DNA from: an uncultured Pirellulales bacterium
GTDB lineage: Bacteria; Planctomycetota; Phycisphaerae; Sedimentisphaerales; Anaerobacaceae
NCBI GenBank assembly: GCA_964354365.1
Contig: CAYGZM010000004.1
Span: 1,559-65,558 of the forward strand
Length of the DNA stretch: 64,000 bases
Reading direction: 5' to 3'
This document shows, one piece after another, positions 3,001 through 49,271 of this stretch (its first letter is position 1; each line of letters starts with the position of its first letter). A model generated the notes under the pieces. The model did not search any database. It saw nothing but the letters and a program-made list of their open reading frames with translations, and was not told the origin of the DNA. A program made the position numbers and the translations under genes.

Positions 3001-4458
3001 GTCCCGCTTTGCGGGGACAAACTCGACTTGCGGAAATGATTCCCTAAGTGCGTCGATTTCTTCAATGCAGTTTATCGAAACGGGTCTAAAGCCGAGCTTT
3101 GCCCAGCTTTCTATTGCCCTTGCCTGCTTTTCAATTTCTTTCGGAGCTATGCTCGTTGCAATAGTCAGCCGGGCGTCCGGTTGTGTCTCAACGTCGGACC
3201 GGCGCCAGGCATCCGGCAATCCCGCCGACTGCGGTGTGTGAACGTCGAAACTATCTCCACAGTCCGCTGTGGCATTGCCGCGGCCCTCGACCGGGACGAT
3301 CTCTATATTGTCGGTTCCCAGGAACTGCTCAAACGTCTTCCATTTAGGCAACCCGGCCCGCGCCTCCCACAACGAATTGCCCTGCATAAAGACGCGAATC
3401 TTCTGCGAAGACTCCTCAAAACTCCGCTGAACGGCCTCAGTGACCACTTCCGTCGCAACGTCCTTGACACAATGCGAGCTTCTGTATCGGCAGCTCCAAT
3501 TACACCCAAAACACTCCAACGGCAGGCAGGCAACCGACGTCAACGGTGAATAGGGCATGAAACGCCCGAAGTGTCCGCCGCCCAGCAGAATCACATTAGG
3601 CGTTCCCACCGCGCAGGAAATGTGCGCCAGGCCCGTTTCCGCCCCGACCGCCAGCCGGCAGCGCTTGAGGATTGCGCAGGACTGCAAAATGGTTGTCCTG
3701 CCGCTTAAGTTTATCGTCCTTACGCCAATCGCATTCAGGTTCCTCTGGTTGATGTCACGGTCCTGCTCGGTTCCCAACGCGATTACCGTAAGCCGGTTGG
3801 CCCTGCAGAACTCCGACATCGCCTGGCCGTATCCCTCGTACACGCGGCATTCATACTGGGCGCCGGCAAACAGGGCGATTGTCCCGGCCGGATCGAGCCC
3901 GTTTTCCCCAAACAGCCTGTCGGCAAACGCCTCATCCTCCTGTTTCATCCAGACGACGGGCCGCAGCCCCGGCGCCTCAATATCCAGCCCTCTTAGGAAA
4001 TCCCGGTGCCGCTCAAGCTCGAGCTTCTGTCCTCCGGGGCTTGGCAGCAGGTCGGTGTAGAATTGATTGTGCATGCTTCTGCGCTCGGGCGAAATGTTGC
4101 ACAGATTGCCCTCGAGTGCGACGCGCCGCTCGGCCCCGCACTTTATCGCAAACCAATCCGTCAGGGCCTCACGCGAATACACCGAATTCAAGGATAGCTG
4201 CGGCTTCAACATCCGCAATCGCGCCGTAATCTCCAGGCGGTACCGTTCGTCCTCCAGAACCCTTTTCCTGTTGAACACCACAACCTCATCCACGTATGGA
4301 CACGCCTCGTATAGCTCGCCGATATGCTCCTGACAGACAACGACTATCCTGGCGCCCTCGTACTTCCGCCGGATGTACGGCAGCATCGACGCCGACAGGA
4401 CCGCATCACCTATCGAATCCGGCCTCACCCAAACTATGTTCCTGATGTTGTCTATCAT
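25..4458 (-). CDS. Giant (1477 aa) multidomain glycosyltransferase: GT9 heptosyltransferase-like N-domain, uncharacterised central module, GT2 domain, TPR-like linker, uncharacterised C-terminal domain
   Basis: Uninterrupted 4.4-kb ORF. The N-terminus (IVWVRPDSIGDAVLSASMLPYIRRKY ... GAETGLAHISCAVGTPNVILLGGGHFGRF) is typical of the GT9 ADP-heptose transferase fold. Residues about 755-990 (DLSIVLCTKDRAELL ... YELIVVKGGSRDNT) give a GT2/GT-A signature. It is separated by only 3 nt from the upstream gene. Confidence 0.7.
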   Translation of the reverse strand: MIDNIRNIVWVRPDSIGDAVLSASMLPYIRRKYEGARIVVVCQEHIGELYEACPYVDEVVVFNRKRVLEDERYRLEITARLRMLKPQLSLNSVYSREALTDWFAIKCGAERRVALEGNLCNISPERRSMHNQFYTDLLPSPGGQKLELERHRDFLRGLDIEAPGLRPVVWMKQEDEAFADRLFGENGLDPAGTIALFAGAQYECRVYEGYGQAMSEFCRANRLTVIALGTEQDRDINQRNLNAIGVRTINLSGRTTILQSCAILKRCRLAVGAETGLAHISCAVGTPNVILLGGGHFGRFMPYSPLTSVACLPLECFGCNWSCRYRSSHCVKDVATEVVTEAVQRSFEESSQKIRVFMQGNSLWEARAGLPKWKTFEQFLGTDNIEIVPVEGRGNATADCGDSFDVHTPQSAGLPDAWRRSDVETQPDARLTIATSIAPKEIEKQARAIESWAKLGFRPVSINCIEEIDALRESFPQVEFVPAKRDAREVFGKPLIYFDDFLEYFRQGDFEFGGIVNSDIFLAGDEGIISFIKSQARGSLVYGSRINVDSLEVLEGEVYEQGFDFFFFHKSLIPHIPKTEFCVGAPWWDYWAPLIAALEGFQIKRVVGPFAYHVRHRFRWDHKQWISLAQKCFAYLIDKASENFYEDPDTNPWALLANIFYTNHNGDTRWSGRDDKMLPHVFSSSILEFLEKKSLRIGYAANRPPVRRDGAGLVKKKIDILIHNTDSAIQCAAPRATRQVADGPGGDEPEKQCDLSIVLCTKDRAELLDEMLDSLEEAAAGVAYELIVVKGGSRDNTLDVLCKHGVTGVYSESEWLGPQRHSWPQLYNFGFSKARGKWAMYASDDIVFGPGAVVRAMELLKRQKEQVAGGIFFYRNPRPTRQDWAEYGIDFTDGARLLMNYGLVRLESFRRVGGFDEAYRFYCADTDLCHKLYEAGQQLIPLPGCFVTHNDLLDAQKQTNADAGGRDIELCRRRWSHFAGDEMPGPMRLLWRDDFSEAFDVPAGLQKIGSGIESFWRGLACFQQGIFGRAEQEFMQAVKSFCDHKQVLWCLAQAADKCEDKALAEKAATGVVRLAPDFEPGLDLLIRVTRREFVAADSVVPVLCSAQSGSVDTLNSCACEQAFDMSCEEGSLYSESWKAADFTNQASPAAAMVRTPRRSGLMATCGDAVRSETQLRRKLEKFSKVVVWGLKTGGHTHAHIHRHFFNTLKRLDANVVLVDDLLENKDVIEGDELVISVDVASRYLPIRRGVYYCLHNCEDDIHRRIDPSRNIRLRTYTRSAEQAGEKWDQVTFFDGKTRTLFQPWATDLLAGEFEEPILRPPSNIVFWVGSIWSDRLNQGNVNEIEILKNVLEKRDIRFVHLQGISDLLNVRYVRHSLIAPAIAGRWQVENDYLPCRMWKNISYGQLGVSNVRKFDEVFNGCTVPGRSIEEIIDNTLSLPFGRYRDMIYEQQEVVKSHHTYVNRLLNIIRAYESVENC

Positions 4459-19624: not shown

Positions 19625-19737
19625 TTCTGCAAAATTGCAGGTTAGACGTAGGGTGGGCTTCAGCCCACCACTTCGGTGGGGCAAGCCCCACCCTGCCGAG
19701 AAGAAATCGCTTGTTGATTACCTGCAATTTTGCAGAA
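19625..19737. mobile_element. MITE-like 113-bp element with perfect 18-bp terminal inverted repeats enclosing a double-hairpin core
   Basis: TTCTGCAAAATTGCAGGT (19625-19642) is the exact reverse complement of ACCTGCAATTTTGCAGAA (19720-19737). The core AGGGTGGGCTTCAGCCCACCACTTCGGTGGGGCAAGCCCCACCCT is also found, inverted, at 44521-44566. Confidence 0.75.
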
Positions 19738-19753
19738 CTCATAATTCACCACA

Positions 19754-19837
19754 GTGGCACGGGCTTCCAGTGGCACGGGCTTGAAGCCCGTGGGACCACG
19801 GCCAAGATGGCCGTGCCACGAATGGCCGTGCCACGAA
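19754..19837. repeat. Family A palindromic repeat (GTGGCACGG / CACGGGCTTGAAGCCCGTG units)
   Basis: Contains GTGGCACGGGCTTCCAGTGGCACGGGCTTGAAGCCCGTGG ... GGCCGTGCCACGAATGGCCGTGCCACGAAT. Related copies lie at 20112-20195, 23942-24053, 32509-32610 and 38998-39072. Confidence 0.85.
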
Positions 19838-19869
19838 TACTGCCAATCGCAGCGCGGTCTTGCCACCCT

Positions 19870-19957: not shown

Positions 19958-20111
19958 AACCAACAAATCTCGTGCCATCGGCCTTTATCCCTGTTTATTC
20001 ACGATTACTGGCCGTCGCAAGACTCGATGTGTATAAATATCAAACACTTATGTCTTCAAAGCGCCTTCTCAATCCCTGCCCGCCGCGGCGGGCCAGCCTC
20101 CCAATCGCAAT

Positions 20112-20195
20112 GTGGCACGAGCTTCCAGTGGCACGGGCTTCCAGCCCGTGCGACCACGGGCGAGACGCCCGCGCCACGAATGGCCGTGCCACGCA
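20112..20195. repeat. Family A palindromic repeat copy, immediately downstream of flgL
   Basis: GTGGCACGAGCTTCCAGTGGCACGGGCTTCCAGCCCGTGCGACCACGG ... CGCCACGAATGGCCGTGCCACGCAT. The GC-rich hairpin CACGGGC-N5-GCCCGTG could act as a terminator or RNA stabiliser for the flg operon. Confidence 0.8.
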
Positions 20196-20215
20196 TCCGC
20201 CTGTCGCATTGCCGC

Positions 20216-23941: not shown

Positions 23942-24053
23942 CGTGGCCTGGCCGCCTGACTCTACTGGTCGTGGCACGGCCATCCCGGCCGTGGCCGCAC
24001 GGGCTTGCAGCCCGTGCGACAATAGTTTTCACGGGCTGGAAGCCCGTGCTACG
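23942..24053. repeat. Family A repeat copy filling the flgJ-flgN gap and overlapping the 3' end of the flgJ-like gene
   Basis: CGTGGCCTGGCCG ... GTGGCACGGCCATCCCGGCCGTGGCCGCACGGGCTTGCAGCCCGTGCG ... CACGGGCTGGAAGCCCGTGCTACG. Confidence 0.8.
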
Positions 24054-30101: not shown

Positions 30102-31799
30102 CTACCTGATAAGCCCGCTCAATTCTCTGAGTATGTCGTTCGCAACTAGTATTGTCCTCGCATTCGCCTGGAAGCCGTTCTGGGCCTGAATCATATTGAC
30201 GAACTCGCTCGCCACATCCGCGTTCGATTTCTCCAGCGCCCCGCCGTGAACGGAACCCGCACCGCCGGTCATTGCCTGTGTCGCCACCGCCTCACCGGAG
30301 TTGGCCGAAGGACTAAGGTAGCCGTTCCCGATACTTTCCAGACCGGAGGTATTCTGGAATAACCCTATCTGAATTGTCGCGATATTCTTCTTGATGCCGT
30401 TGGAGAACGCGCCGATGACTATTCCCTCGTTATTCACCGAGACCGTTGAAAGTCTCCCTGCCTCGTAGCCGTCCTGCTCCCTCGCCACCGCCGTCGAGTT
30501 CCCGGCGAACTGGGTCAAGCCGTTAAGCTGCCCCGCCGTGCCCAGGGACATCGCAATGGTTTGAGGATTCGCGGTGTCGTGTGCAAAGGTCGCGACAAAT
30601 TGCGCCGTATCGCCAATGGTGGAATTCAAACCTGCGTAGGTGCCCGTGCTTGCATCGAACTCTATGCCCCGTATCCGCCGGTTGTCGGGCGTGATGGCGC
30701 TGACATCGCCGGTAATCGAGGTGAGCACCATATCCCACGTATTGGCCGTGTCGGTCCTGACAAACGCCCCCGAAAGCACGTGCTTGCCTCCCTGCGTATC
30801 GAAAACGGTGATGTTGACGTTCTTGACCTCCTCGCCGCCCACGCTCGCAAGCTCAAAATAGGTCGGCAGCGTCAACGAGTCCGTCCCGTCGCTCGAAGCC
30901 GTATAAGAAAGCGCCACGTCCGACCTGCTGTAGCCCGGGCTGCTGTCGGTCACCACTATTCTCCCGTTGGTCATACTCGCCGTCACGTTGCCTGAGCCTA
31001 ACTGGCTCTCAATATAGCTCAGCACATCGGCCAGGGATGTCGTCGCGCCGACATCCAGACCGGTGCTGTCCGTCACCGCCGTCCCGTCGGGTTGATAACC
31101 GGTAACATACAGCTTGCCGTCCGTATCCGTTGTGCCGAATGAGCCGCTGAATTGATCCAGAGCACCGACCAGCGTGCTCGCAGTCGCCCCCGTGCCGCCG
31201 CCCGTGGTGAAAGTCGTGTTCGATGACAGCTTTTGCGTCTGCGCCGTGGCAAATGTCGCATCGGAGCTCAAGTTGCCCGCCAGCACTACCTCAGACGTGG
31301 CATTTGCCGCCATCGCCACATCGTAGGGAAGCTTCAGATTGCTGTCGCCAGCGGTCTGAAAACCGTCGCTTATCCCGACCGAGCCGATACGCTGAACAAG
31401 AAAACCCGTTGCAGGATCGACAAGATTCGAGTCCGCATCAACGGCGAATGCCCCGGCGCGAGTGTAAACGTCTTTCGAGCCGTCGCTCAGCACAAAATAC
31501 CCTTCCCCTTCCATCGCCAGGTCGAGCGGGTTGCCCGTGTTCACAATGTTACCCTGCTGCATATTGGGCGATATGCCGGCAATCCCGACGCCGCTGCCCA
31601 TCTGCTGCGGATTCGTGCCGCCGACCGTACCGGTGGGCTGCGAAGCCTTCTTTATCGTCTGACTCAGCAGCTCCGAAAAAGTTATTCGGCTGGACTTAAA
31701 ACCGGTCGTGGTAATATTCGCAAGGTTGTTGCCCGCTACATCCAGCATTTTCTGATGGGCCTGAAGCCCCGTAACGCCCGCTGATAGTGCAAAACTCAT
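30102..31799 (-). CDS. flgE: Flagellar hook protein FlgE
   Basis: MSFALSAGVTGLQAHQKMLDVAGNNLANITTTGFKSSR. C-terminus GALEKSNADVASEFVNMIQAQNGFQANARTI. 565 aa with a Thr/Ser/Gly-rich variable core. Confidence 0.93.
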   Translation of the reverse strand: MSFALSAGVTGLQAHQKMLDVAGNNLANITTTGFKSSRITFSELLSQTIKKASQPTGTVGGTNPQQMGSGVGIAGISPNMQQGNIVNTGNPLDLAMEGEGYFVLSDGSKDVYTRAGAFAVDADSNLVDPATGFLVQRIGSVGISDGFQTAGDSNLKLPYDVAMAANATSEVVLAGNLSSDATFATAQTQKLSSNTTFTTGGGTGATASTLVGALDQFSGSFGTTDTDGKLYVTGYQPDGTAVTDSTGLDVGATTSLADVLSYIESQLGSGNVTASMTNGRIVVTDSSPGYSRSDVALSYTASSDGTDSLTLPTYFELASVGGEEVKNVNITVFDTQGGKHVLSGAFVRTDTANTWDMVLTSITGDVSAITPDNRRIRGIEFDASTGTYAGLNSTIGDTAQFVATFAHDTANPQTIAMSLGTAGQLNGLTQFAGNSTAVAREQDGYEAGRLSTVSVNNEGIVIGAFSNGIKKNIATIQIGLFQNTSGLESIGNGYLSPSANSGEAVATQAMTGGAGSVHGGALEKSNADVASEFVNMIQAQNGFQANARTILVANDILRELSGLIR

Positions 31800-32328: not shown

Positions 32329-32508
32329 CAACAGAGAACCTCGTATGCCACGTGACATCTAACACGTTGCACCAATAGGACTTATCTGTGCCTGAGAAAT
32401 TTGCCGCGCCCGAAAACTCGACAACCCCTCGCGAGCACCGGACAATCCCCCTGGACAATACTTCCGCCGATGCGGAAAATCCTGCCGCCTCCGCCTTCGC
32501 ATGTCCTC

Positions 32509-32610
32509 GTGGCACGGCCATTCGTGGCACGGCCATTCCCTCGACTTCGCTCGGGACAGGCGTGGCCGCGGTCTCACGGGCTTCAAGCCCGTGCCACTTG
32601 AAGCCCGTGC
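32509..32610. repeat. Family A repeat copy (closest relative of the copy inside the regulator gene at 38998-39072)
   Basis: GTGGCACGGCCATTCGTGGCACGGCCATTCCCTCGACTTCGCTCGGGACAGGCGTGGCCGCGGTCTCACGGGCTTCAAGCCCGTGCCACTTGAAGCCCGTGC. Positions 32524-32598 match 38998-39072 at 72 of 75 positions by my manual alignment. Confidence 0.85.
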
Positions 32611-32701
32611 TGCGCCGGATATGCGCTCGGTATCACTGTCGCCGCCATCCGCAACCAATCAAGTGACATCAACAAGCCTTCCCTTGTCTCAACTACTTCC
32701 C

Positions 32702-32810
32702 GTTGCGGAAACAACATTTTTGTCATTGCTGCGAAAGCAGGAATCCAGCTTTTGGAACATAGACTCCTGCTTTCGCAGCGGCAACATTGCCGGTTTCAGC
32801 TTTCCGCAAC
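32702..32810. mobile_element. MITE-like element: 10-bp inverted termini around a family C hairpin core
   Basis: GTTGCGGAAA (32702-32711) and TTTCCGCAAC (32801-32810) are inverted. They flank GTCATTGCTGCGAAAGCAGGAATCC ... CTCCTGCTTTCGCAGCGGC. Confidence 0.65.
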
Positions 32811-33183
32811 TAACCAGGCGTCGCGATGCAGTCCCATAAGAAGCAGCACCGCCTCTCTGGCAGGTCGGACAATATCGGCAAGTCCCATAACACAAACCGT
32901 TCGCAGATTGAGTGACATTGAGAAGTCCCATAAGATGCAACGCGGCCTTGTTGCAAACCGGCTCGCACCAATCAGCCTCCGCAATTCGCCGAATTCCGCC
33001 CGGTAAACCCCAACCGCAGCGCCGACGCACATCCAAACGCCCAAGACGGTGACATTATTGGCCCGTCCAATAAAAAAATTTAAGTCGTCTCAACTGCCCG
33101 GACGATTAACCGGACATTATTCCTTGTGCGAACGCACAATTAACAAAGAGCCAGCAGGGGCTGGATGTTATGGTTGGGGCCGA

Positions 33184-34650
33184 ATGAGTTTACGCAGAAC
33201 CGTTGCACTGAGCAGGCAAGCCGAAATTCACGAATTGGCTCGCCAGGTTAGCGGGGAGGTATTTACCGCTGACACTATCGCCGAAGCCTCCGACGTCATC
33301 GAGGCCCGCAGTCCCGACCTGATCCTTCTTGACCGGCAATTCAGTCCTCATATCGACCGATTTCTTCTTGCCGCCGATAAAATCTCCGATGCCCCCGTTG
33401 TGGTAATCGGCAGCGACGACGAAGACGCCGACACATTCGCCTCGCTCGAAAAGATGGGCGCTTATGACTATCTGCGAGGGAAAAACGACCTAAGCCGCCT
33501 CAAAGAAATTGCAGACCGAATAGAACAACAGTCAAACGTCCGCGCAAGCGGCCCTTGTGGCAATGCCTCACAGAAGACTGCCGACCGTTTCTTTGCCGAG
33601 GACTTCGCCGCAGAAGTCTCCCTGGTCGGCCATAGCGACGCAATCAAACACACGCTCAAAATGACTAAGCTCGTCGCGGCCAGCCGATGCAATCCCGTCC
33701 TGATAGTCGGAGAAACCGGCACAGGTAAGGAACTCGCCGCCAAAGCAATACACCTTCTAAGACACCCCCCGGGGCCAGGCCCGAAAGAACCCTTTGTCGC
33801 TGTAAACTGCGCCGCCCTGACCGCAAATCTCCTCGAAAGCGAACTCTTTGGCCACGTCAGAGGCGCCTTCACCGGAGCCGACCGTGACAAAACGGGCCTG
33901 CTCGAGCTGGCCGCCAACGGTACCCTCTTCCTCGATGAAATAAGCGAGATACCCATCGACCTGCAGGCCAAACTGCTCCGCGTCCTTCAGGAACAAACCT
34001 TCCGTAAAGTCGGAGGCATCAAAGACATTCAATCCAATGCCACGATAATTGCATCGAGCAATCGCAACCTCAAAAAAGAAATCGACGCCAACCGCTTTCG
34101 CCAGGACCTTTACTATCGCCTCAACATCAGTCCAATCACCATCGCTCCCCTCGGATCGCCCCGCCGAAAACAGGACATCCCCCTTCTCGCTGCATATTTT
34201 CTAAAGACGTCCGCCATTTGTCCTGAAAAGTCCGGCAAGATTACGTCCTTGACCAAACTGGCTCTGGAGGCGCTTGAGAAATACCACTGGCCCGGAAACG
34301 TCCGCGAGCTTCGCAATGTCATTGAAAGAGCCATTCTTTACGAAACAACCGACAAAATCGGCGTTAACAGTATAGTTATCGACCCTACCGAACCATGTGA
34401 ATTCTCCGACGGTTCATCCGCCGGCGGAATCAGGAACTACTCCCTCGCAAAGGCCGAACGCGAGCTTATCTCCCGCGCACTCCAGGAAACAGGCTGGCAG
34501 AAAACCAGGGCCGCAGCCCTGCTCGGCATTACCAGAGCCACTCTCTATGCCAAGGTCAAGCAGTACAATATCGTCGAAAAAACGCCGCACGCCCCGGAAC
34601 ATCCCGCCCCGCAAGCCTCCTCGTCTGAGGCTGTCGCCGCCGCATACTGA
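33184..34650 (+). CDS. Sigma-54-dependent transcriptional activator with degenerate receiver-like N-domain (FleQ/FlrA-like)
   Basis: AAA+ Walker A VLIVGETGTGKELAAKAIH. GAFTGA motif (GHVRGAFTGAD). WPGNVRELRN. C-terminal Fis-type HTH (TRAAALLGITRATLYAKVKQY). The N-domain lacks the acidic DD pocket (VALSRQAE). The ORF is open from 33049; I prefer the ATG at 33184 at low confidence. Confidence 0.85.
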   Translation: MSLRRTVALSRQAEIHELARQVSGEVFTADTIAEASDVIEARSPDLILLDRQFSPHIDRFLLAADKISDAPVVVIGSDDEDADTFASLEKMGAYDYLRGKNDLSRLKEIADRIEQQSNVRASGPCGNASQKTADRFFAEDFAAEVSLVGHSDAIKHTLKMTKLVAASRCNPVLIVGETGTGKELAAKAIHLLRHPPGPGPKEPFVAVNCAALTANLLESELFGHVRGAFTGADRDKTGLLELAANGTLFLDEISEIPIDLQAKLLRVLQEQTFRKVGGIKDIQSNATIIASSNRNLKKEIDANRFRQDLYYRLNISPITIAPLGSPRRKQDIPLLAAYFLKTSAICPEKSGKITSLTKLALEALEKYHWPGNVRELRNVIERAILYETTDKIGVNSIVIDPTEPCEFSDGSSAGGIRNYSLAKAERELISRALQETGWQKTRAAALLGITRATLYAKVKQYNIVEKTPHAPEHPAPQASSSEAVAAAY

Positions 34651-34972: not shown

Positions 34973-37546
34973 ATGCCGGAACAAGAGCCAAAACAGACTC
35001 CCGACCAGAGCCTTCCCGCCACGCCGGAAGCACCCAGGCCCCAGGCTGCGGGGGGGGCCTCTGGCGCGGATAGCGAGCTGCTCGAAGGCCAGCCCGCCGG
35101 TGCTTGGGCGGGCCAGCCCCTCGAAGAAATCCCGGAAGGGCAGGTCTTCGTCGCGGACGACGATCTCTACAAATCGCTCGATCAGATTGCAGAATCCCCG
35201 ACCATCACAGACACACCAGGCAAACGCCTCAAAGTCCGAATCCCGCGATTGCACCTCTCAACCGTCCAGAAAATCCTTGTCGCCGGCATTATTCTGATTG
35301 TGGCGCTGCTGTTGCGCACGCTGCTGACCTCTGCGTCACGCCGCGCCGCCGCATCATCAAAATCCTCAGCCGACAATGCGATACTCGCAGTTCAGGAGCA
35401 CCCCACCCGCCAAGTGGCCGAGGGGCCTGAGCCTGAACCTGTGTCTCAATCAGCTCAGCCGACGTCCTTGAAAGTCGCTCAGGATTTCTACGCCGCCGGC
35501 GAATACGACAACGCTTACGCAACCTACAACCAGCTCTATCGGAGTCTCCCTACTGATGCGAATAGCCACAGAGATTTACTTCGCCTGAAGATGGCTCTCT
35601 GTCGGGCCAAGTCAGGACAGATCGAAGAGGCCGACCGTATCCTCGATGAAGTTGCCAAAAGCAGCTCCAACGCACTCAGGCTGATGGCCAACTACCATCG
35701 CATCTCCCTCGAAATGCAAAAAAAGCAGTATTTGAACGCACGAACAAGGGCCTATCGCGCAATGGCCCTTATCGACGTCGTCGATACCGACGCAAAAGTC
35801 AAATCGTCGCTCCGAAGCAACTGCCACTTCCTGATCGCAGAAGCGCTGACTAAACATGTCCTTTCGCTCAGCGATCTCGACGCGGACCTTACGCCGGAGC
35901 TCTGGGGCGCTCCAGCCGAGATCGACCCTTTCCTCGGCTTGGACGACCGGCAGCTCGAAGCCCTCTTGAATTCAGGCGCCGATTATCTCAATGACGCGCT
36001 GCTCCGGCCCCAAATCCGGAAGATTCGCCGTGACGACGGCTCGATCTGCTGGTGCGTCGTTGCCAACGGCGCACCCATTGAAGAGCTCCTGGCCAGATTC
36101 GCCGCAAACGCCGACCTCGACATATCCTGGACAATCCGCAGCGATCAGGATCCGCAGGCCCAAGGCCCCTCCGCCAGGAGTCCCAAGCGGGACGTGGGGG
36201 GAACGGCAGACCCCGCCCACAACAGGCCCGTCATCCTGTATATGCCCGCGGCAACTGCACAGCAAGTCGTCACCGCCGCCGCCGGACAGGTTGGCTTGCT
36301 CGCCCGCATCGACCAGAACGATGTCGTAACCATTATTCAGCCGGCAGAGTCCTCTTCGTTGTCGCAATCCATATCTCTGCTTTGCAGTGAAACTATCTCA
36401 TTGTGGCAGAGGTTCCTGCTCAGTTTCGATGACGACCGGCGCGCCGCCAATGCCCATTTCGCACTCGGCCTTCTGCATTCACGACAAGGCAGCATCCCCG
36501 AAGCAATAGCAGAATACAAATTGACGGCTAACCGTTTCCCATCCTCGTCTTTGGCGCCCTACGCCCTGCTCAACTCGAGCAAGTTGAAAAGCAGCCCACA
36601 GGTGCGAGACTACGCCGGCGCCGCCGAGGACCTAAAGCAGGTCGTGGAACAATATCCCGACGACCGGATTGTCACCAGAGCTTACGTATATCTCGCCGAA
36701 TACACCGAAAAGGCAGGAACTACCAGCGAAGCCGCCAGGCTCTATCGTAAAGTCTATTATCTCGGCTTCTCGCCCGAATCACAATGCAGCGCCGCCTTTG
36801 GAGCCGGCAAATGCTACTATCAAATGGGCGATTACGATTCCGCCGTCGAATGGCTGGCAAACTACATCGACCTCATGCGGGAAAAAAAGAACCCCGACGT
36901 CTGCTCCGCCTGCTTCCTCCTCGGCAAAGCTTACCTGGCTCTCAACGAACCCCAGCAGGCCTGCCGTGCATTTCAATATGCCCTGGCCGGACCGCTCCCA
37001 AGAAATGAATACGTCGAGACAATCTCAGCCTTGACCGATGCGTATATCGATCAGAAACAATTCATCCAGGCGCTCGATGTCCTCGAAAACATTGACTCTT
37101 ATCAGTTTTCACAAGCCGAATTGGTCAGGATATTGCTGCTCAAAGGCAAAGTCCTCCGGGAAATGGGCCTGGTTGACAACGCCGTCACGTTGCTCAGCAG
37201 CAGGATCGAATACGCATCCGACCCCCAGCTAAAGGCTGAAATATCCTTTGAGCTGACCAACTGCTATATCGCCAAGAACCAATTGGAGCTCGCCCATAAG
37301 AAGCTGACCGAGATCCTCCTCATCGTCCCACCCGGACCTCTGGCGTATGAGGTCGCGCTCAAGCTGGCACAGACGTGCCTGATGCTCAGCCAGGATTCAC
37401 AGGCAATATCCGTCTGTTCCCAGCTCCTCGATTCAGCCGCACCCGAGCAAATCAAAAACGAAGCCGCCCAAATGCTCGCCACGGCGTACAGCCGGCAGAA
37501 AAACTACGACAAAGCGGCTTTGGCCCTTTTGGACCGCCCGAAATGA
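34973..37546 (+). CDS. Single-pass membrane protein with extensive TPR repeats and a central STN/FecR-C-like module (about 857 aa from this start)
   Basis: The ORF is open from GTG 34865, but that codon is only 13 nt from the -12 promoter element. ATG 34973 has GAGAG upstream. TM helix VQKILVAGIILIVALLLRTLL. Many TPR-like units (AQDFYAAGEYDNAYATYNQLY; AAFGAGKCYYQMGDYDSAVEWLANYI). Central segment ICWCVVANGAPIEELLARFAANADLDISW ... AAAGQVGLLARIDQNDVVTII. Confidence 0.7.
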   Translation: MPEQEPKQTPDQSLPATPEAPRPQAAGGASGADSELLEGQPAGAWAGQPLEEIPEGQVFVADDDLYKSLDQIAESPTITDTPGKRLKVRIPRLHLSTVQKILVAGIILIVALLLRTLLTSASRRAAASSKSSADNAILAVQEHPTRQVAEGPEPEPVSQSAQPTSLKVAQDFYAAGEYDNAYATYNQLYRSLPTDANSHRDLLRLKMALCRAKSGQIEEADRILDEVAKSSSNALRLMANYHRISLEMQKKQYLNARTRAYRAMALIDVVDTDAKVKSSLRSNCHFLIAEALTKHVLSLSDLDADLTPELWGAPAEIDPFLGLDDRQLEALLNSGADYLNDALLRPQIRKIRRDDGSICWCVVANGAPIEELLARFAANADLDISWTIRSDQDPQAQGPSARSPKRDVGGTADPAHNRPVILYMPAATAQQVVTAAAGQVGLLARIDQNDVVTIIQPAESSSLSQSISLLCSETISLWQRFLLSFDDDRRAANAHFALGLLHSRQGSIPEAIAEYKLTANRFPSSSLAPYALLNSSKLKSSPQVRDYAGAAEDLKQVVEQYPDDRIVTRAYVYLAEYTEKAGTTSEAARLYRKVYYLGFSPESQCSAAFGAGKCYYQMGDYDSAVEWLANYIDLMREKKNPDVCSACFLLGKAYLALNEPQQACRAFQYALAGPLPRNEYVETISALTDAYIDQKQFIQALDVLENIDSYQFSQAELVRILLLKGKVLREMGLVDNAVTLLSSRIEYASDPQLKAEISFELTNCYIAKNQLELAHKKLTEILLIVPPGPLAYEVALKLAQTCLMLSQDSQAISVCSQLLDSAAPEQIKNEAAQMLATAYSRQKNYDKAALALLDRPK

Positions 37547-38649
37547 AGACGAATAACGACTCCAAAAAGCAGAACTACGGCCTCAAATCCGAATTCCCCG
37601 CAACGGCGGGCTTCAGGACCTGTCTCTGCGCCTTCTGCCTGACTTGTCTGCTGCTTTGCCTCAACGGATCCCCGGCCGTAGCCAGGCTCTCATCGGGTCT
37701 GCCCGACCCGAACAATCCCTCACCATCCGCGCTGGCCGAAGCCCCAACCGACGCAAACGCTCCAAAGACACCCCCTGCCGGGCCTGACGAACAACGCCTC
37801 AGACAGCACCAAGACCCAAAACCCGCAACTGATACGACCGCAGACTCTAACTCTCAAATCGCTGAGCAACCGCCCGCCCGCAACTGGCTCATCGCAAAAA
37901 GCCCAACTACCGACATTGGACGCAAACTCTGGCAGACCAGAATAACTGTACCCAACAGCAAGAACGATACCAACAGTGACGATGACCTCCGGCGAATAAT
38001 CGAGCTGATCCGCTCCGTTGAGTTCAAGCCCCGCAACAAAACCCCCAAACCTCTCATCACCCTCGAATCGCCCGCGCAGCCAGAGCCAAACCAAGCCGCC
38101 GTCGGACCGTCGCCCGGCAAAAACACCGAAACGCAGCAAATCAAGCCGGAACCTCGCCCCGGAATGTTGTCCGAAGAGACCCTGAAAATCCTCGCTAAGC
38201 AGTTGCAGAATCCCGAACAGGTCAAAAACCCGTTCGATCTCGCAGAAGTCCTCTTTCACAGCGGCCGTCTCAAAGAAGCCGCAATATGCTACCAGCAGGT
38301 CCTCCTTCGAACCGACCCAAACCATGGCGACCCAAACCAAGCCGATCCAAACCAAATCGATCCGAACCGCCAAATCGACTGGATCCTGTTTCAGATAGGC
38401 AACTGCCTGCGAAACGACGACCCTCCCAAAGCAATGGAAGTCTATTCGCGCCTGTGCAACGACCACGCAGGCTCAATGTGGGCCGACCTTGCAAAGGCGC
38501 GCAGCATGCTGCTGAGCTGGTACCGCAAGGATGAACCCAGAAAGCTCATTGAACAGAATCGACGGCAGACAACCGATTACCCGAACGAAAATGACTACAT
38601 CCTAACGACAAAATCCCAACCCCAAACGGAGCAAGCAAAAGGTGGATAG
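37543..38649 (+). CDS. Secreted proline-rich protein with C-terminal TPR-like region (368 aa)
   Basis: The ATG overlaps the upstream stop (ATGA at 37543-37546). Signal peptide CLCAFCLTCLLLCLNGSPAVA. Long Pro/Asn/Asp-rich linker including GDPNQADPNQIDPN. C-terminus AEVLFHSGRLKEAAICYQQVLL ... GNCLRNDDPPKAMEVYSRL. Confidence 0.65.
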   Translation: MKTNNDSKKQNYGLKSEFPATAGFRTCLCAFCLTCLLLCLNGSPAVARLSSGLPDPNNPSPSALAEAPTDANAPKTPPAGPDEQRLRQHQDPKPATDTTADSNSQIAEQPPARNWLIAKSPTTDIGRKLWQTRITVPNSKNDTNSDDDLRRIIELIRSVEFKPRNKTPKPLITLESPAQPEPNQAAVGPSPGKNTETQQIKPEPRPGMLSEETLKILAKQLQNPEQVKNPFDLAEVLFHSGRLKEAAICYQQVLLRTDPNHGDPNQADPNQIDPNRQIDWILFQIGNCLRNDDPPKAMEVYSRLCNDHAGSMWADLAKARSMLLSWYRKDEPRKLIEQNRRQTTDYPNENDYILTTKSQPQTEQAKGG

Positions 38650-40219
38650 CGCCCGCGCAAACGAAAACCAAGTCACGCAAACCAGCCCGCCGGCGCCTGG
38701 GCGGGCCAGCCTCATCGCAAACGTGCTGATAGTGGACGACGACCCACAGACCGCCGGACTTATGCTCAGGATACTGGCCCAAAAAGGCATTCGCGGAATA
38801 ATCGCCGACAGCGCCGAGGCCGCAATAGACTCTCTTGACGGAGCCGATTACGACCTTGTTTTCATCGGCGACAGAATATGCCAGCGCCCCGGCCTTGCCC
38901 CCAAACCACAAAACGCCTTCGACCTGCTCCACAGAATCAAACAGAGCTCGCCTGAAATGCCTGTCATTATGATGGCCGACCCCTGCAGACAGGATGCGTG
39001 GCACGGCCATTCCCTCGACTGCGCTCGGGACAGGCCTGGCCGTGGTCTCACGGGCTTCAAGCCCGTGCCACTGCAACAAATCGCCGAGGCGGCCGTCAAA
39101 GCCGTAAGAGCCGGCTGTTACGACTTCCTCGTCAAACCCCTCGACCTTCAAAAACTCCGGGCCATCCTGGACACGTTACTGCCCAACCACACCGTCCAGG
39201 CCTGTGAGTCCGCAGAGCACGGCATCCACAGCCTCTACCAGATCGTCGGAAAGAGCAAAAAGCTCCTCCAGACCGTCACCCTCGCAAAGAAAATAGCGCC
39301 CACTTCCGTCCCCGTCTTAATCAGCGGTGAAAGTGGAACAGGCAAGGAATTGATCTCGTACCTCATCCATCACAACAGCAAACGCGCACAGGCCCCATAC
39401 ATCAAGGTCAATTGTGCCGCGCTGAGTGACACACTTCTCGAAAGCGAGCTCTTCGGCCACGAAAAAGGCGCATTCACCGGGGCCTATACCCAGCGCAAAG
39501 GCCGATTCGAAATGGCCCACGGAGGAACACTTCTCCTCGACGAAATCACCGAAACTCCAATAAAGTTCCAGGCCAAGCTCCTCAGAGTCCTCGAACAGCA
39601 GAATCTGGAACGCGTCGGCGGAAACGACAACATCAAAGTCAACGTTCGAATAATAAGCACCACCAACAAAGACCTGCTCCACGAAGTCGAGCAAGGCCGT
39701 TTCCGCCGCGACCTCTACTATCGCCTAAGTGCGGTAAGACTGATTATCTGTCCTCTGAGCCAGCGAACCGAGGACCTGCCGGACCTCGTATGGCATTTCG
39801 TGAATCTATATGCCCGCGAAGCCCAGCGCCGCATAACCGCCCTCGACCCCGCTATGATGGATATCTTCGCCAAATACCACTGGCCCGGCAACGTCCGCCA
39901 GCTCCGAAACGTCGTCCTGACCTCGCTGCTTTTAGGCGTCGGCCAAACCCTATCGCTCGCCGATGTCTCCTGGCTCTTCGACGAGCTCCAGCCCCGACAG
40001 CAGGAAAACGCACCCGACCTCGACGACCTGCAGCCATCAGCCGCGTCACTGGGCGGAATACCGCTCGTGGAAATAGAGAAGCAGGCCATTCTCGACACAT
40101 TACGACAAACAGAAGGCAACAGAACCGAAGCCGCAAGGGTCCTTGGAATAAGCGACCGGACCCTGCGGGACAAAATACGCCGATACCGGCAGGCCGAATC
40201 GCTCCAGCCGGTCGGATAA
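38642..40219 (+). CDS. Sigma-54-dependent response regulator (NtrC/FlrC/FleR-like) carrying an in-frame repeat insertion in the receiver domain
   Basis: GTG start overlaps the upstream stop by 8 nt. Receiver [14 protein letters not shown] ... YDLVFIGD ... MPVIMMA ... YDFLVKP. AAA+ [25 protein letters not shown] ([11 protein letters not shown]). [35 protein letters not shown]. Confidence 0.9.
38998..39072. repeat. Family A repeat copy (75 nt) located inside the response-regulator CDS, read through in frame
   Basis: GTGGCACGGCCATTCCCTCGACTGCGCTCGGGACAGGCCTGGCCGTGGTCTCACGGGCTTCAAGCCCGTGCCACT matches 32524-32598 at 72 of 75 positions. It encodes about [25 protein letters not shown], between PVIMMADP and [20 protein letters not shown]. 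Confidence 0.9.
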
Positions 40220-44520: not shown

Positions 44521-44566
44521 AGGGTGGGGCTTTGCCCCACCGAACTGGTGGGCCAAAGCCCACCCT
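44521..44566. repeat. Family B double-hairpin repeat just after the flhA stop (possible terminator/attenuator)
   Basis: AGGGTGGGGCTTTGCCCCACCGAACTGGTGGGCCAAAGCCCACCCT is the inverted counterpart of the core of the 19625-19737 element. Confidence 0.8.
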
Positions 44567-44588
44567 ACGCAGAAAGGAGCAAACGTTT

Positions 44589-49147: not shown

Positions 49148-49208
49148 AAGCGCCGCCCCCGCCCCCAAAAAAACACTGACTAATCCCCGTTCCACAAACA
49201 GCGTCTTC

Positions 49209-49271
49209 GTCATTCCTGCGAAAGCAGGAATCCAGTTCTCAGACGATAGACCCCTGCTTGCGCAGGGGTGA
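49209..49271. repeat. Family C repeat (GTCATTCCTGCGAAAGCAGGAATCC ... CCCCTGCTTGCGCAGGGGTGAC)
   Basis: Two perfect hairpins (CCTGC-GAAA-GCAGG and CCCCTGC-TT-GCGCAGGGG). Related to 32720-32785 and 57659-57770. Confidence 0.8.

Follow-up and report, generated by a model that had tools for sequence, protein, structure and literature searches.

An intergenic REP dimer sits within the receiver of a planctomycetal flagellar regulator, in frame and probably as a tolerated surface loop

A palindromic repeat inside a sigma-54 activator gene

The stretch of DNA analysed here (the window; 64,000 nucleotides (nt) of contig CAYGZM010000004.1, from an uncultured planctomycete) contains a gene for a sigma-54 activator of the NtrC family whose receiver domain carries, in frame, a short palindromic repeat of a kind that lies mostly between genes. 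As judged by Pfam, the protein consists of a receiver (Response_reg, residues 28-112), an AAA+ sigma-54 interaction domain (Sigma54_activat, residues 201-367, with AAA_lid_14) and a Fis-type helix-turn-helix (HTH; HTH_8). The GAFTGA loop of the AAA+ domain is legible in the translation as EKGAFTGAY, and Foldseek matches of the modelled regulator to NtrX, NtrC1, LuxO and FleQ reflect the NtrC-family architecture. Its neighbours form a flagellar cluster (FlgE/F/G/A/I, FliL/M/N, FlhA and FliA). The open reading frame (ORF), 38642-40219, stays open across the repeat, which encodes residues 120-144. An earlier reading of the same DNA (the original prediction) had proposed that an intergenic palindrome of the repetitive extragenic palindrome (REP) type sits in frame in the receiver, and our analysis bears this out. 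The features of the gene are as follows.

38642-40219, + strand: coding sequence of the NtrC-family sigma-54 activator, 525 amino acids (aa) (Pfam, Foldseek, translation)
38998-39071, + strand: inserted element, a 74-nt tail-to-tail REP dimer, GTGG...CCAC (alignment of filled and empty alleles)
38998-39044, + strand: REP unit 1 (hairpin scan, fold)
39011-39034, + strand: 24-nt module TCCCTCGACTGCGCTCGGGACAGG nested within the REP unit 1 loop, encoding SLDCARDR
39049-39071, - strand: REP unit 2, inverted (hairpin scan)
38999-39073, + strand: 25 insert codons, W120-L144, replacing ancestral P-D-H (allele and protein alignments)

The 74 nt at 38998-39071 are recognizable as a dimer of GTAG/GTGG-headed REP units, each with a GTGG head followed by a GC-rich stem of 7-8 bp (CACGGSC/GSCCGTG). 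The layout is GTGG, CACGGCCA(T), TCCCTCGACTGCGCTCGGGACAGG, (CC)TGGCCGTG, GTCT, CACGGGC TTCAA GCCCGTG, CCAC, with the heads of both units pointing outward. In REP unit 1 the head (38998-39001) precedes an 8-bp stem, CACGGCCA / TGGCCGTG, whose loop is widened by the nested module to about 27 nt, against about 3-5 nt in the short forms. REP unit 2 reads GTGG + CACGGGC TTGAA GCCCGTG on the minus strand, with a stem of 7 bp and a loop of 5 nt. The two units, separated by a 4-nt spacer (GTCT, 39045-39048), differ in subtype (GGCC vs GGGC stems), and their heads and stems make up the 9-nt inverted repeats, GTGGCACGG...CCGTGCCAC, at the termini of the element.

The original prediction had described 75 nt, or 25 codons, at 38998-39072. 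The 25 codons stand, displaced by one base to 38999-39073, and the element proper is 74 nt long. The claim that the frame passes through without a stop is also correct, yet it is weak evidence on its own: five of the six reading frames of the element are free of stops, so that an open frame is to be expected and selection only had to supply a length change divisible by three.

Sibling copies between genes

We reproduced the match on which the original prediction was built, between 38998-39072 and the intergenic segment 32524-32598 (72 of 75 positions identical; 0 matches expected by chance). A longer alignment, of 38994-39072 with 32520-32598, covers 79 nt at 95% identity (repeat family D4). 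The unit of this family, family A, is a 19-nt hairpin, CACGG(G/C)C, 5 nt, G(C/G)CCGTG, each with an unpaired GTGG on its 5' side; in a hairpin scan the GTGG stood directly before CACGGSC in 13 window units. The sequence GTGGCACGGCCAT has 13 matches in the window against 1.6 expected, and the hairpin core CACGGGCTTCAAGCCCGTG, allowing up to three mismatches, occurs at six window sites (19774, 20132, 23998, 24030, 32575 and 39049) where shuffled sequence gives an expectation of 0.00. The window holds five family-A clusters, four of them intergenic.

32507-32610, + strand: intergenic REP cluster with the closest sibling copy (32524-32597)
19754-19838, unstranded: intergenic family-A REP hairpin cluster (repeat family D3, hairpin scan)
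20112-20196, unstranded: intergenic family-A REP hairpin cluster (repeat family D3, hairpin scan)
23969-24050, unstranded: intergenic family-A REP hairpin cluster (hairpin scan)

All four lie between long ORFs, as do the related copies that had been pointed out at 19754, 20112 and 23942 (here 23969). The cluster at 32507-32610 falls between the ORFs 30102-31799 (-) and 33049-34650 (+); its sibling copy is preceded by two tandem GTGGCACGGCCAT units, and an orthologous copy of the sibling was found in two relatives (L147 and L207). The cluster at 23969-24050 includes a short form lacking the nested module, GGCCATCCCGGCC.

Two further repeats were seen in the window. A 43-nt inverted pair at 19647-19689 and 44527-44569, CGTAGGGTGGGCTTCAGCCCACC...GGTGGGGCAAGCCCC, has the look of a classical REP dimer with GTAG heads, from another family, and on that account the genome would hold several REP families. 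A 90-nt direct repeat (32692-32781 and 49179-49268, 79% identity, internal inverted repeat CTGCGAAAGCAGGA...TCCTGCTTTCGCAG) represents another intergenic family and is next to the 32507-32610 REP cluster.

Direction and age of the insertion

A protein search returned seven relatives of the regulator at 83-93% identity; the next orthologues, of about 495 aa, share at most 77%. In what follows, allele comparisons refer to eight alleles in a DNA alignment and orthologue comparisons to 121 sequences. The states of the eight alleles at three sites, namely the receiver's beta4-alpha4 and beta3-alpha3 loops and the linker that precedes the HTH, are listed below.

Window allele: beta4-alpha4, long form; linker, empty; beta3-alpha3, empty
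P0001 / L003: beta4-alpha4, long form; linker, empty; beta3-alpha3, empty
P0003 / L005: beta4-alpha4, long form; linker, filled; beta3-alpha3, filled
P0002 / L004: beta4-alpha4, short form, 24-nt module precisely absent; linker, empty; beta3-alpha3, empty
P0004 / L006: beta4-alpha4, short form; linker, filled; beta3-alpha3, filled
P0005 / L007: beta4-alpha4, 21-nt module at the same two junctions; linker, filled, 9 nt shorter; beta3-alpha3, empty
P0006 / L001: beta4-alpha4, empty, CAG GAT GCG CCA GAT CAT CAA CAA (QDAPDHQQ); linker, filled; beta3-alpha3, empty
P0007 / L002: beta4-alpha4, unrelated 101-nt element with perfect 18-bp terminal inverted repeats (TIRs), CCCCGCACCAATCTGCTC / GAGCAGATTGGTGCGGGG; linker, filled; beta3-alpha3, empty

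The empty allele (L001/P0006), at 93% amino-acid identity, encodes the peptide QDAPDHQQI, and it resembles the ancestral state, given that the outgroups L208 and L209 (about 76-77% identity) keep the His codon before CAR CAR ATC. Compared with it, filled alleles have lost GCCAGATCATC (11 nt) and gained the element plus TGC, a net change of +66 nt that puts 25 codons in place of three (P-D-H). Across the orthologues, the insert columns are gapped in about 105-117 of the 121 sequences, depending on the column, and about 110 lack the insert. Given that both distant orthologues and one close allele lack the insert, the alignments show that the repeat entered the gene. The reverse direction, in which the intergenic repeats would derive from a native loop of the gene, can draw on the sequence identity itself and nothing more; we consider it refuted by the same absences and by a core motif that extends over many orders and hundreds of loci. 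The original prediction had itself suggested looking for a homologous loop in distant relatives, and these relatives turned out to be mostly gapped at the insert.

The suggestion that the event was recent did not survive the allele comparison. Six alleles that differ by 3.4-5.5% of their nucleotides share the element, in its long, short or swapped-module form (the replacement module of L007 is the 21-nt CCCCGCAAGGGGCCCGAGGGG), and the 50-nt REP core has diverged about as far as the gene (0.040 vs 0.044). Outside the inserts all alleles differ by 3.0-5.5% (dS 0.08-0.17). An assembly artefact is likewise ruled out, the filled site recurring in assemblies made independently from differing samples and sources (L003, L004, L005, L006, L007, L161 and L170). 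The allele tree is star-like and the insertion states are discordant with it, which implies recombination.

The beta4-alpha4 loop is one of three places where family A has entered this gene. A second insertion, in the linker before the HTH, has the opposite orientation, is about 95 nt long with a longer internal module, and reads WHGLPARQTTARPVP...SRRVEGMVVP (alignment columns 1424-1520; L001, L002, L005, L006 and L007). The third is a single hairpin, CGTGGCACGGGCGTCCCGCCCGTG, in the beta3-alpha3 loop of L005 and L006 (columns 244-290). The window gene has neither of these, and a distant orthologue, P0093, carries RAGLPCH in its beta3-alpha3 loop.

The TIR element of L002 (L002:322-422) occupies the REP-dimer junction exactly. 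Elements of this kind, 101-107 nt long with 18-bp TIRs, include a diverged relative at L004:~3636-3738, in frame close to the N-terminal end of the upstream gene; the window counterpart of that site (37590-37625) holds a different short sequence, and no copy of the TIR element was found within the window. REP-dimer (A) and TIR-element (T) alleles share the same derived junction, GGATGC, then the element, then TGCAACAA, and both have lost the ancestral bases CCAGATCA. As the simplest reading, separate entry of the two elements into the ancestral site is disfavoured by this sharing (xTG in place of the ancestral His codon, the same bases missing), and for the same reason one of the two alleles probably derives from the other.

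The receiver with and without the insert

An AlphaFold2 model built on the 121 sequences places the insert between a strand at residues 108-112 (beta4) and a helix at residues 144-156 (alpha4). HMMER alignments to the NtrX and NtrC1 receivers are interrupted at exactly this point, so that the location given in the original prediction holds. Model confidence (pLDDT) is below 50 for residues 122-139 and about 90 across the rest of the receiver, values to which destabilization is invisible. In the core of the strongly conserved AAA+ domain (residues 258-343) the same model drops to a pLDDT of about 30 even with 121 aligned sequences, which probably reflects the modelling and not the protein.

The stretch running from PE(M/L)P to alpha4 (PE..AV) spans 31 residues in 67 of the 121 orthologues and ranges from 26 to 71, with unrelated fillings; the beta4-alpha4 loop is a length-permissive site in the family. 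The phospho-acceptor Asp and the Thr/Ser position of the receiver are weakly conserved. The window receiver has D32-D34, D77 and K165, and the acceptor column of NtrX and NtrC1 aligns on G76; position 76 is never Asp among the orthologues, and position 77 is Asp in only 70 of them. At the conserved Thr/Ser position Ala stands in 77 of the 121 and Thr or Ser in only 24, whereas the receiver Lys (K165) is kept in 114. The receiver thus looks degenerate irrespective of the insert. The original prediction was right that this position is Ala in the window gene; Ala is also the state of the family majority, and it has no link to the insert.

Purifying selection is evident over the gene as a whole (dN/dS 0.16). 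Among insert-bearing alleles dN/dS is 0.10 in the AAA+ domain, 0.05-0.08 in the HTH and 0.45 in the receiver, the last being 0.43 when all eight alleles are taken. With the reading frame intact in eight of eight alleles, these values indicate a gene that is functional throughout and a receiver that is relaxed, not decaying. We therefore regard it as highly improbable that the insert is an inactivating lesion, one that knocked out the receiver or the entire regulator and set the gene on the way to a pseudogene. The higher dN/dS of the receiver relative to the AAA+ domain, and a Pfam receiver match that ends early, at residue 112, would fit such decay; the intact frames, the strong constraint on the output domains, a receiver ratio that stays below 1 and is similar once alleles without the A-element are included, and the confident fold predicted on either side of the insert all speak against it.

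A second possibility is that the REP peptide has been recruited as a functional loop exposed on the receiver's active-site face, where it might for instance obstruct or modify contact with a kinase or partner, with a change in flagellar control. The insert does adjoin the Thr/Ser switch position in the beta4-alpha4 loop, it has been retained in frame in six diverged alleles, and its REP core evolves more slowly than synonymous sites. However, the peptide itself is not conserved: eight of its residues are present or absent and the module is swapped between alleles, and in P0003 all three substitutions within element codons are non-synonymous. The empty allele and the allele with unrelated sequence co-occur with the filled ones, both under purifying selection; loop length varies across the family; insert or no insert, the phospho-acceptor and Thr/Ser positions are degenerate; and the low pLDDT of the insert points the same way. 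Such recruitment is in our judgement unlikely. The variable acceptor and switch positions, the family-wide range of loop lengths and the matching receiver dN/dS with and without the insert also leave without support the two consequences drawn in the original prediction, that the insertion rewires signalling or inactivates phospho-control, a control that this family may never have possessed; they favour the option of a tolerated insertion, which it had also offered.

Predicted folding of the element

The predicted fold of the element comprises two local hairpins closed by GTGG/CCAC, with an energy of -41.7 kcal/mol as RNA (z = -2.5 vs shuffles) and -23.9 kcal/mol as DNA (z = -3.1). The strong mRNA hairpin of the original prediction is thus recovered as a stable predicted fold, and qualified by its modest z-score and by alleles in which stems are broken, L005 (CACAGCC) and L007 (GCCAGTG).

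We entertained the possibility that the element acts at the RNA or DNA level, its mRNA hairpins serving as a translational pause, RNase barrier or attenuator, or its DNA as a site for gyrase or a nucleoid protein, with the peptide as a by-product. Besides the fold energies, this draws on stems that are largely conserved between alleles while loop and module vary, and on the proposal of REPs as RNA elements in the literature on GTAG-headed REPs (PMC3733652). Against it stand the modest z-scores, the broken stems, the coexistence of empty and other-element alleles, and the occurrence of the family in many unrelated genes, which argues for passive tolerance; a gathering-threshold scan of the whole window with Rfam gave no match. 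A function of this kind seems doubtful to us.

Spread of the element across Planctomycetota

An exact scan for the 23-nt core GTGGCACGGGCTTSMAGCCCGTG, the 23-mer of REP unit 2, using one genome per GTDB species, returned at least 119 stretches (L008-L126), almost all in metagenome-assembled genomes (MAGs) of Planctomycetota. Among the core matches listed are Sedimentisphaerales, Tepidisphaerales, Phycisphaerales, Pirellulales, Planctomycetaceae and Gemmataceae. In this Sedimentisphaerales-like planctomycete the family is dispersed mostly between genes, and its core motif occurs across Planctomycetota. A few of the MAGs listed are labelled Verrucomicrobiota, Terriglobia, Deltaproteobacteria, Thermodesulfobacteriota, Fimbriimonadales or Sumerlaeales; these hits may stem from binning errors, horizontal transfer or convergence.

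Entry into genes is common. Among 130 core hits in the listed genome loci, 50 lie in frames open for at least 60 codons on either side. The ten longest such ORFs were tested, and eight have Pfam domains flanking the REP peptide on both sides: leucyl-tRNA synthetase, DNA polymerase III alpha (DnaE), MutS, RecG, HypF, a DUF255 thioredoxin-like protein, an AddA/UvrD-like nuclease and a U32 peptidase. The 23-nt core is common to many planctomycetal orders, with a large share of copies in genuine housekeeping genes. Proteins of Planctomycetota may therefore routinely vary in length through loops derived from palindromes, and such loops are also a routine hazard when these proteins are annotated or aligned.

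In metagenomes the 24-nt module was recovered at 81 loci (L127-L207), three of which are alleles of the regulator (L158, on the same contig as L003, L161 and L170). The whole composite recurs in 24 of the 81, at about 18 sites with distinct flanks and with its length fixed at 74-75 nt, the pattern to be expected of a doublet that spreads as one unit. In L191 it lies in the opposite orientation, in frame within a Tricorn-type protease, where it is read as WHGLQARETTAKPVPSEVEGMAVPQ. The copies show no consistent target duplication, and their 5' flank is mostly T-rich (...CTT followed by GTGG). The TGC/TGC flank of the regulator copy accordingly looks incidental: a 3-bp target-site duplication is rejected by the lack of any at the roughly 18 other copies, and the progenitor that it would imply, CAGGATGCAACAA, is frameshifted relative to the ancestral sequence.

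The module (CCAT TCCCTCGACNNCGCTCGGGAC) was also seen outside GTGG-REP hairpins (for example in L127, L128, L136, L139 and L143), inside GTAG-headed hairpins with other stems (L133, L140 and L146) and elsewhere with no obvious hairpin; it may be a small repeat of its own. The metagenome samples that bear it include peat, sediment and soil.

A probable tolerated insertion and its alternatives

Taken as a whole, we read the locus as a tolerated in-frame insertion of a REP dimer into a surface loop, with a probability of about 0.75. One copy of the dimer entered the codons of the beta4-alpha4 surface loop in the receiver of the flagellar regulator, probably by single-strand hairpin transposition of the REP/RAYT type or by ectopic recombination. 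Its entry removed 11 nt of ancestral sequence for a net in-frame gain of 66 nt, and selection would let only frame-preserving products survive. The 25 inserted residues would then form a disordered loop in the translated protein, tolerated because the site is length-permissive, the receiver was degenerate beforehand and neither output domain (AAA+ or HTH) is touched. In a recombining population the insertion remains polymorphic. Loss or exchange of the nested module is most simply explained as ectopic gene conversion by REP copies elsewhere with the same stems, for which short forms such as GGCCATCCTGGCCGTGGTC at L166 and L205 are candidate donors, and in one lineage the unrelated TIR element would have taken the place of the dimer at the same junction. 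The insert is, on this evidence, probably a near-neutral passenger loop whose effect on regulation is close to neutral.

Several observations weigh against this reading. Neither a RAYT nor any other transposase turned up in the DNA at hand. A tblastn search of the window and 208 loci (1.39 Mb) with three RAYT sequences (R. baltica RB2408 and two others, from the supplement of PMC3733652) gave no hit, a result that is uninformative without a complete genome, RAYT being single-copy; as the search gave nothing, the mechanism of mobilization is one that we infer. The junction is not clean, since 11 nt of the target are missing, and the TGC/TGC flank does not recur at other copies. We likewise infer both the translation of the insert and its neutrality. 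Divergence of the REP core (0.040) is below the synonymous rate (dS about 0.13), which could reflect constraint on the element, through DNA or RNA structure or through homogenization, and not pure neutrality. Persistence over 3.4-5.5% of allele divergence is also compatible with some benefit.

A related and tentative idea, which we rank well below a tolerated insertion, is that the beta4-alpha4 site and the nested REP loop are exchange points at which different palindromic cassettes are swapped at identical junctions. Between GGCCAT and CCTGGCC the REP loop holds the 24-nt module, the 21-nt module or nothing, and between GGATGC and TGCAACAA the gene holds the 74-nt REP dimer or the unrelated 101-nt TIR element. 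If such exchange took place by a targeted mechanism, with elements homing to or replacing resident hairpins, and not by chance and gene conversion, it would mean that Planctomycetota use mobile palindromes to diversify the surface loops of their proteins, in keeping with the presence of the REP core in LeuRS, DnaE, MutS, RecG and other housekeeping proteins of several orders.

Neighbouring activator and a second palindrome family

A second sigma-54 activator lies in the flagellar cluster at 33049-34650, about 4 kb upstream, with AAA+ and HTH_8 domains and no receiver match within its first 190 residues. By analogy, the pair is reminiscent of two-tier hierarchies of the FleQ/FleR or FlrA/FlrC type.

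A second palindrome family (stem GCCCGCC / GGCGGGC, then CAGCC) also occurs inside genes. Across alleles its stems are kept and its loop varies (GGCGCC, GGTACT, GTCACC and others). One copy adds about eight codons (PPAPGRAS) to the N-terminal tail of the regulator and is missing from orthologues at 77% identity or less; another lies within the neighbouring 893-aa TPR gene, in a different reading frame. Its copies are at:

window 38682-38711, 35089-35118 and 20074-20098
L001:1895-1917, L007:273-295 and L161:1402-1424

Comparison with known palindromic elements

The closest known system is the GTAG-tagged REP superfamily, defined by Di Nocera et al. 2013 (BMC Genomics 14:522, PMC3733652), whose account includes GTGG variants in Opitutus terrae. 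The element described here shares several features of that superfamily: a 5' tetranucleotide beside the stem, a short GC-rich stem, and many dispersed, mainly intergenic copies in dimers or clusters. The superfamily is bounded by stems of 5-13 bp and loops of 2-20 nt, and the loop of REP unit 1 exceeds this, at about 27 nt, because of the nested module. For GTAG-headed REPs the established model, as these sources outline it, is mobilization by a single-strand, hairpin-recognizing Y1 transposase of RAYT type (PMC3733652, PMC3116915).

The same paper describes REPs within genes in several species, with the largest number in O. terrae, a relative within the Planctomycetes-Verrucomicrobia-Chlamydiae (PVC) superphylum, with dimers that encode 20-30 aa (PMC3733652). 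The peptides given there for the GTAG-19 family of O. terrae are WHGRPAR, GTGVPPV, HGRDARAT, SRAGRPCH and VARAPRP, and the REP-bearing genes listed include a P. putida sigma-54 regulator and a C. koseri response regulator; for the planctomycete R. baltica the paper gives only hypothetical-protein cases (PMC3733652). Both GTAG-19 and the family described here have an unpaired 5' GT(A/G)G head beside a short GC-rich stem-loop, and both are mostly intergenic, in dimers and clusters, with a minority in frame in genes. Their hosts belong to the PVC superphylum, and they encode the same kind of peptides (WHGR.., GTG.PPV, HGR.ARAT, SRAG.PCH, VARA..P), which implies the same CACGGGC/GCCCGTG stem in GTAG-19. 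This tie is one of encoded peptides (those of the units here and of the third insertion, CGTGGCACGGGCGTCCCGCCCGTG) and not of DNA consensus. The present case differs in its host, an uncultured Sedimentisphaerales-like planctomycete, in the 24-nt nested module and in its natural allele series (empty, long, short, swapped module, other element).

REPINs (Bertels & Rainey 2011, PLoS Genet 7:e1002132, PMC3116915) are similar in consisting of two inverted REPs with a short spacer, 4 nt here, and the fixed unit length of 74-75 nt at about 18 loci fits a doublet that would propagate as one replicating unit. REPINs have been described as extragenic (PMC3116915). In the element described here, unlike a REPIN, the two REPs are of different subtypes and each folds on itself, in place of one long hairpin.

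A functional parallel is offered by the Rickettsia palindromic elements (RPEs), reportedly described by Ogata et al. in Science in 2000. RPEs are about 100-150 bp long, and their host is an obligate intracellular alphaproteobacterium with a reduced genome. Like the repeat studied here, they are palindromic selfish repeats that lie in frame in functional genes, are translated and are tolerated at surface positions in many unrelated housekeeping genes; RPEs are longer, and the resemblance is functional only, no sequence relationship being claimed. A summary of RPEs forms part of the survey of GTAG-tagged REPs (PMC3733652).

Small non-autonomous palindromic elements of another kind, the QMITEs of Coxiella burnetii, alter or extend proteins on insertion into ORFs, in the cases set out by Wachter et al. 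2018 (BMC Genomics 19:247, PMC5896051). MITEs, miniature transposable elements with inverted repeats, have longer TIRs and target-site duplications of fixed length, whereas the element in the regulator has 9-nt TIRs and no consistent duplication, and we do not class it among them. The MITE-like one is the unrelated 101-nt element in L002, with its 18-bp perfect TIRs, which is not a REP dimer.

In-frame insertion of REP dimers is thus already known. The allele series at this regulator, in which the site is empty, holds the dimer in a long, short or swapped-module form or has an unrelated element at that junction, and which includes two further insertion sites, all under purifying selection, would allow a direct test of neutrality. 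Set beside the known systems, the case is an unusually clear one, and it adds to them a planctomycetal host range with housekeeping-gene targets, a nested module and a rich natural series of alleles at a single site.

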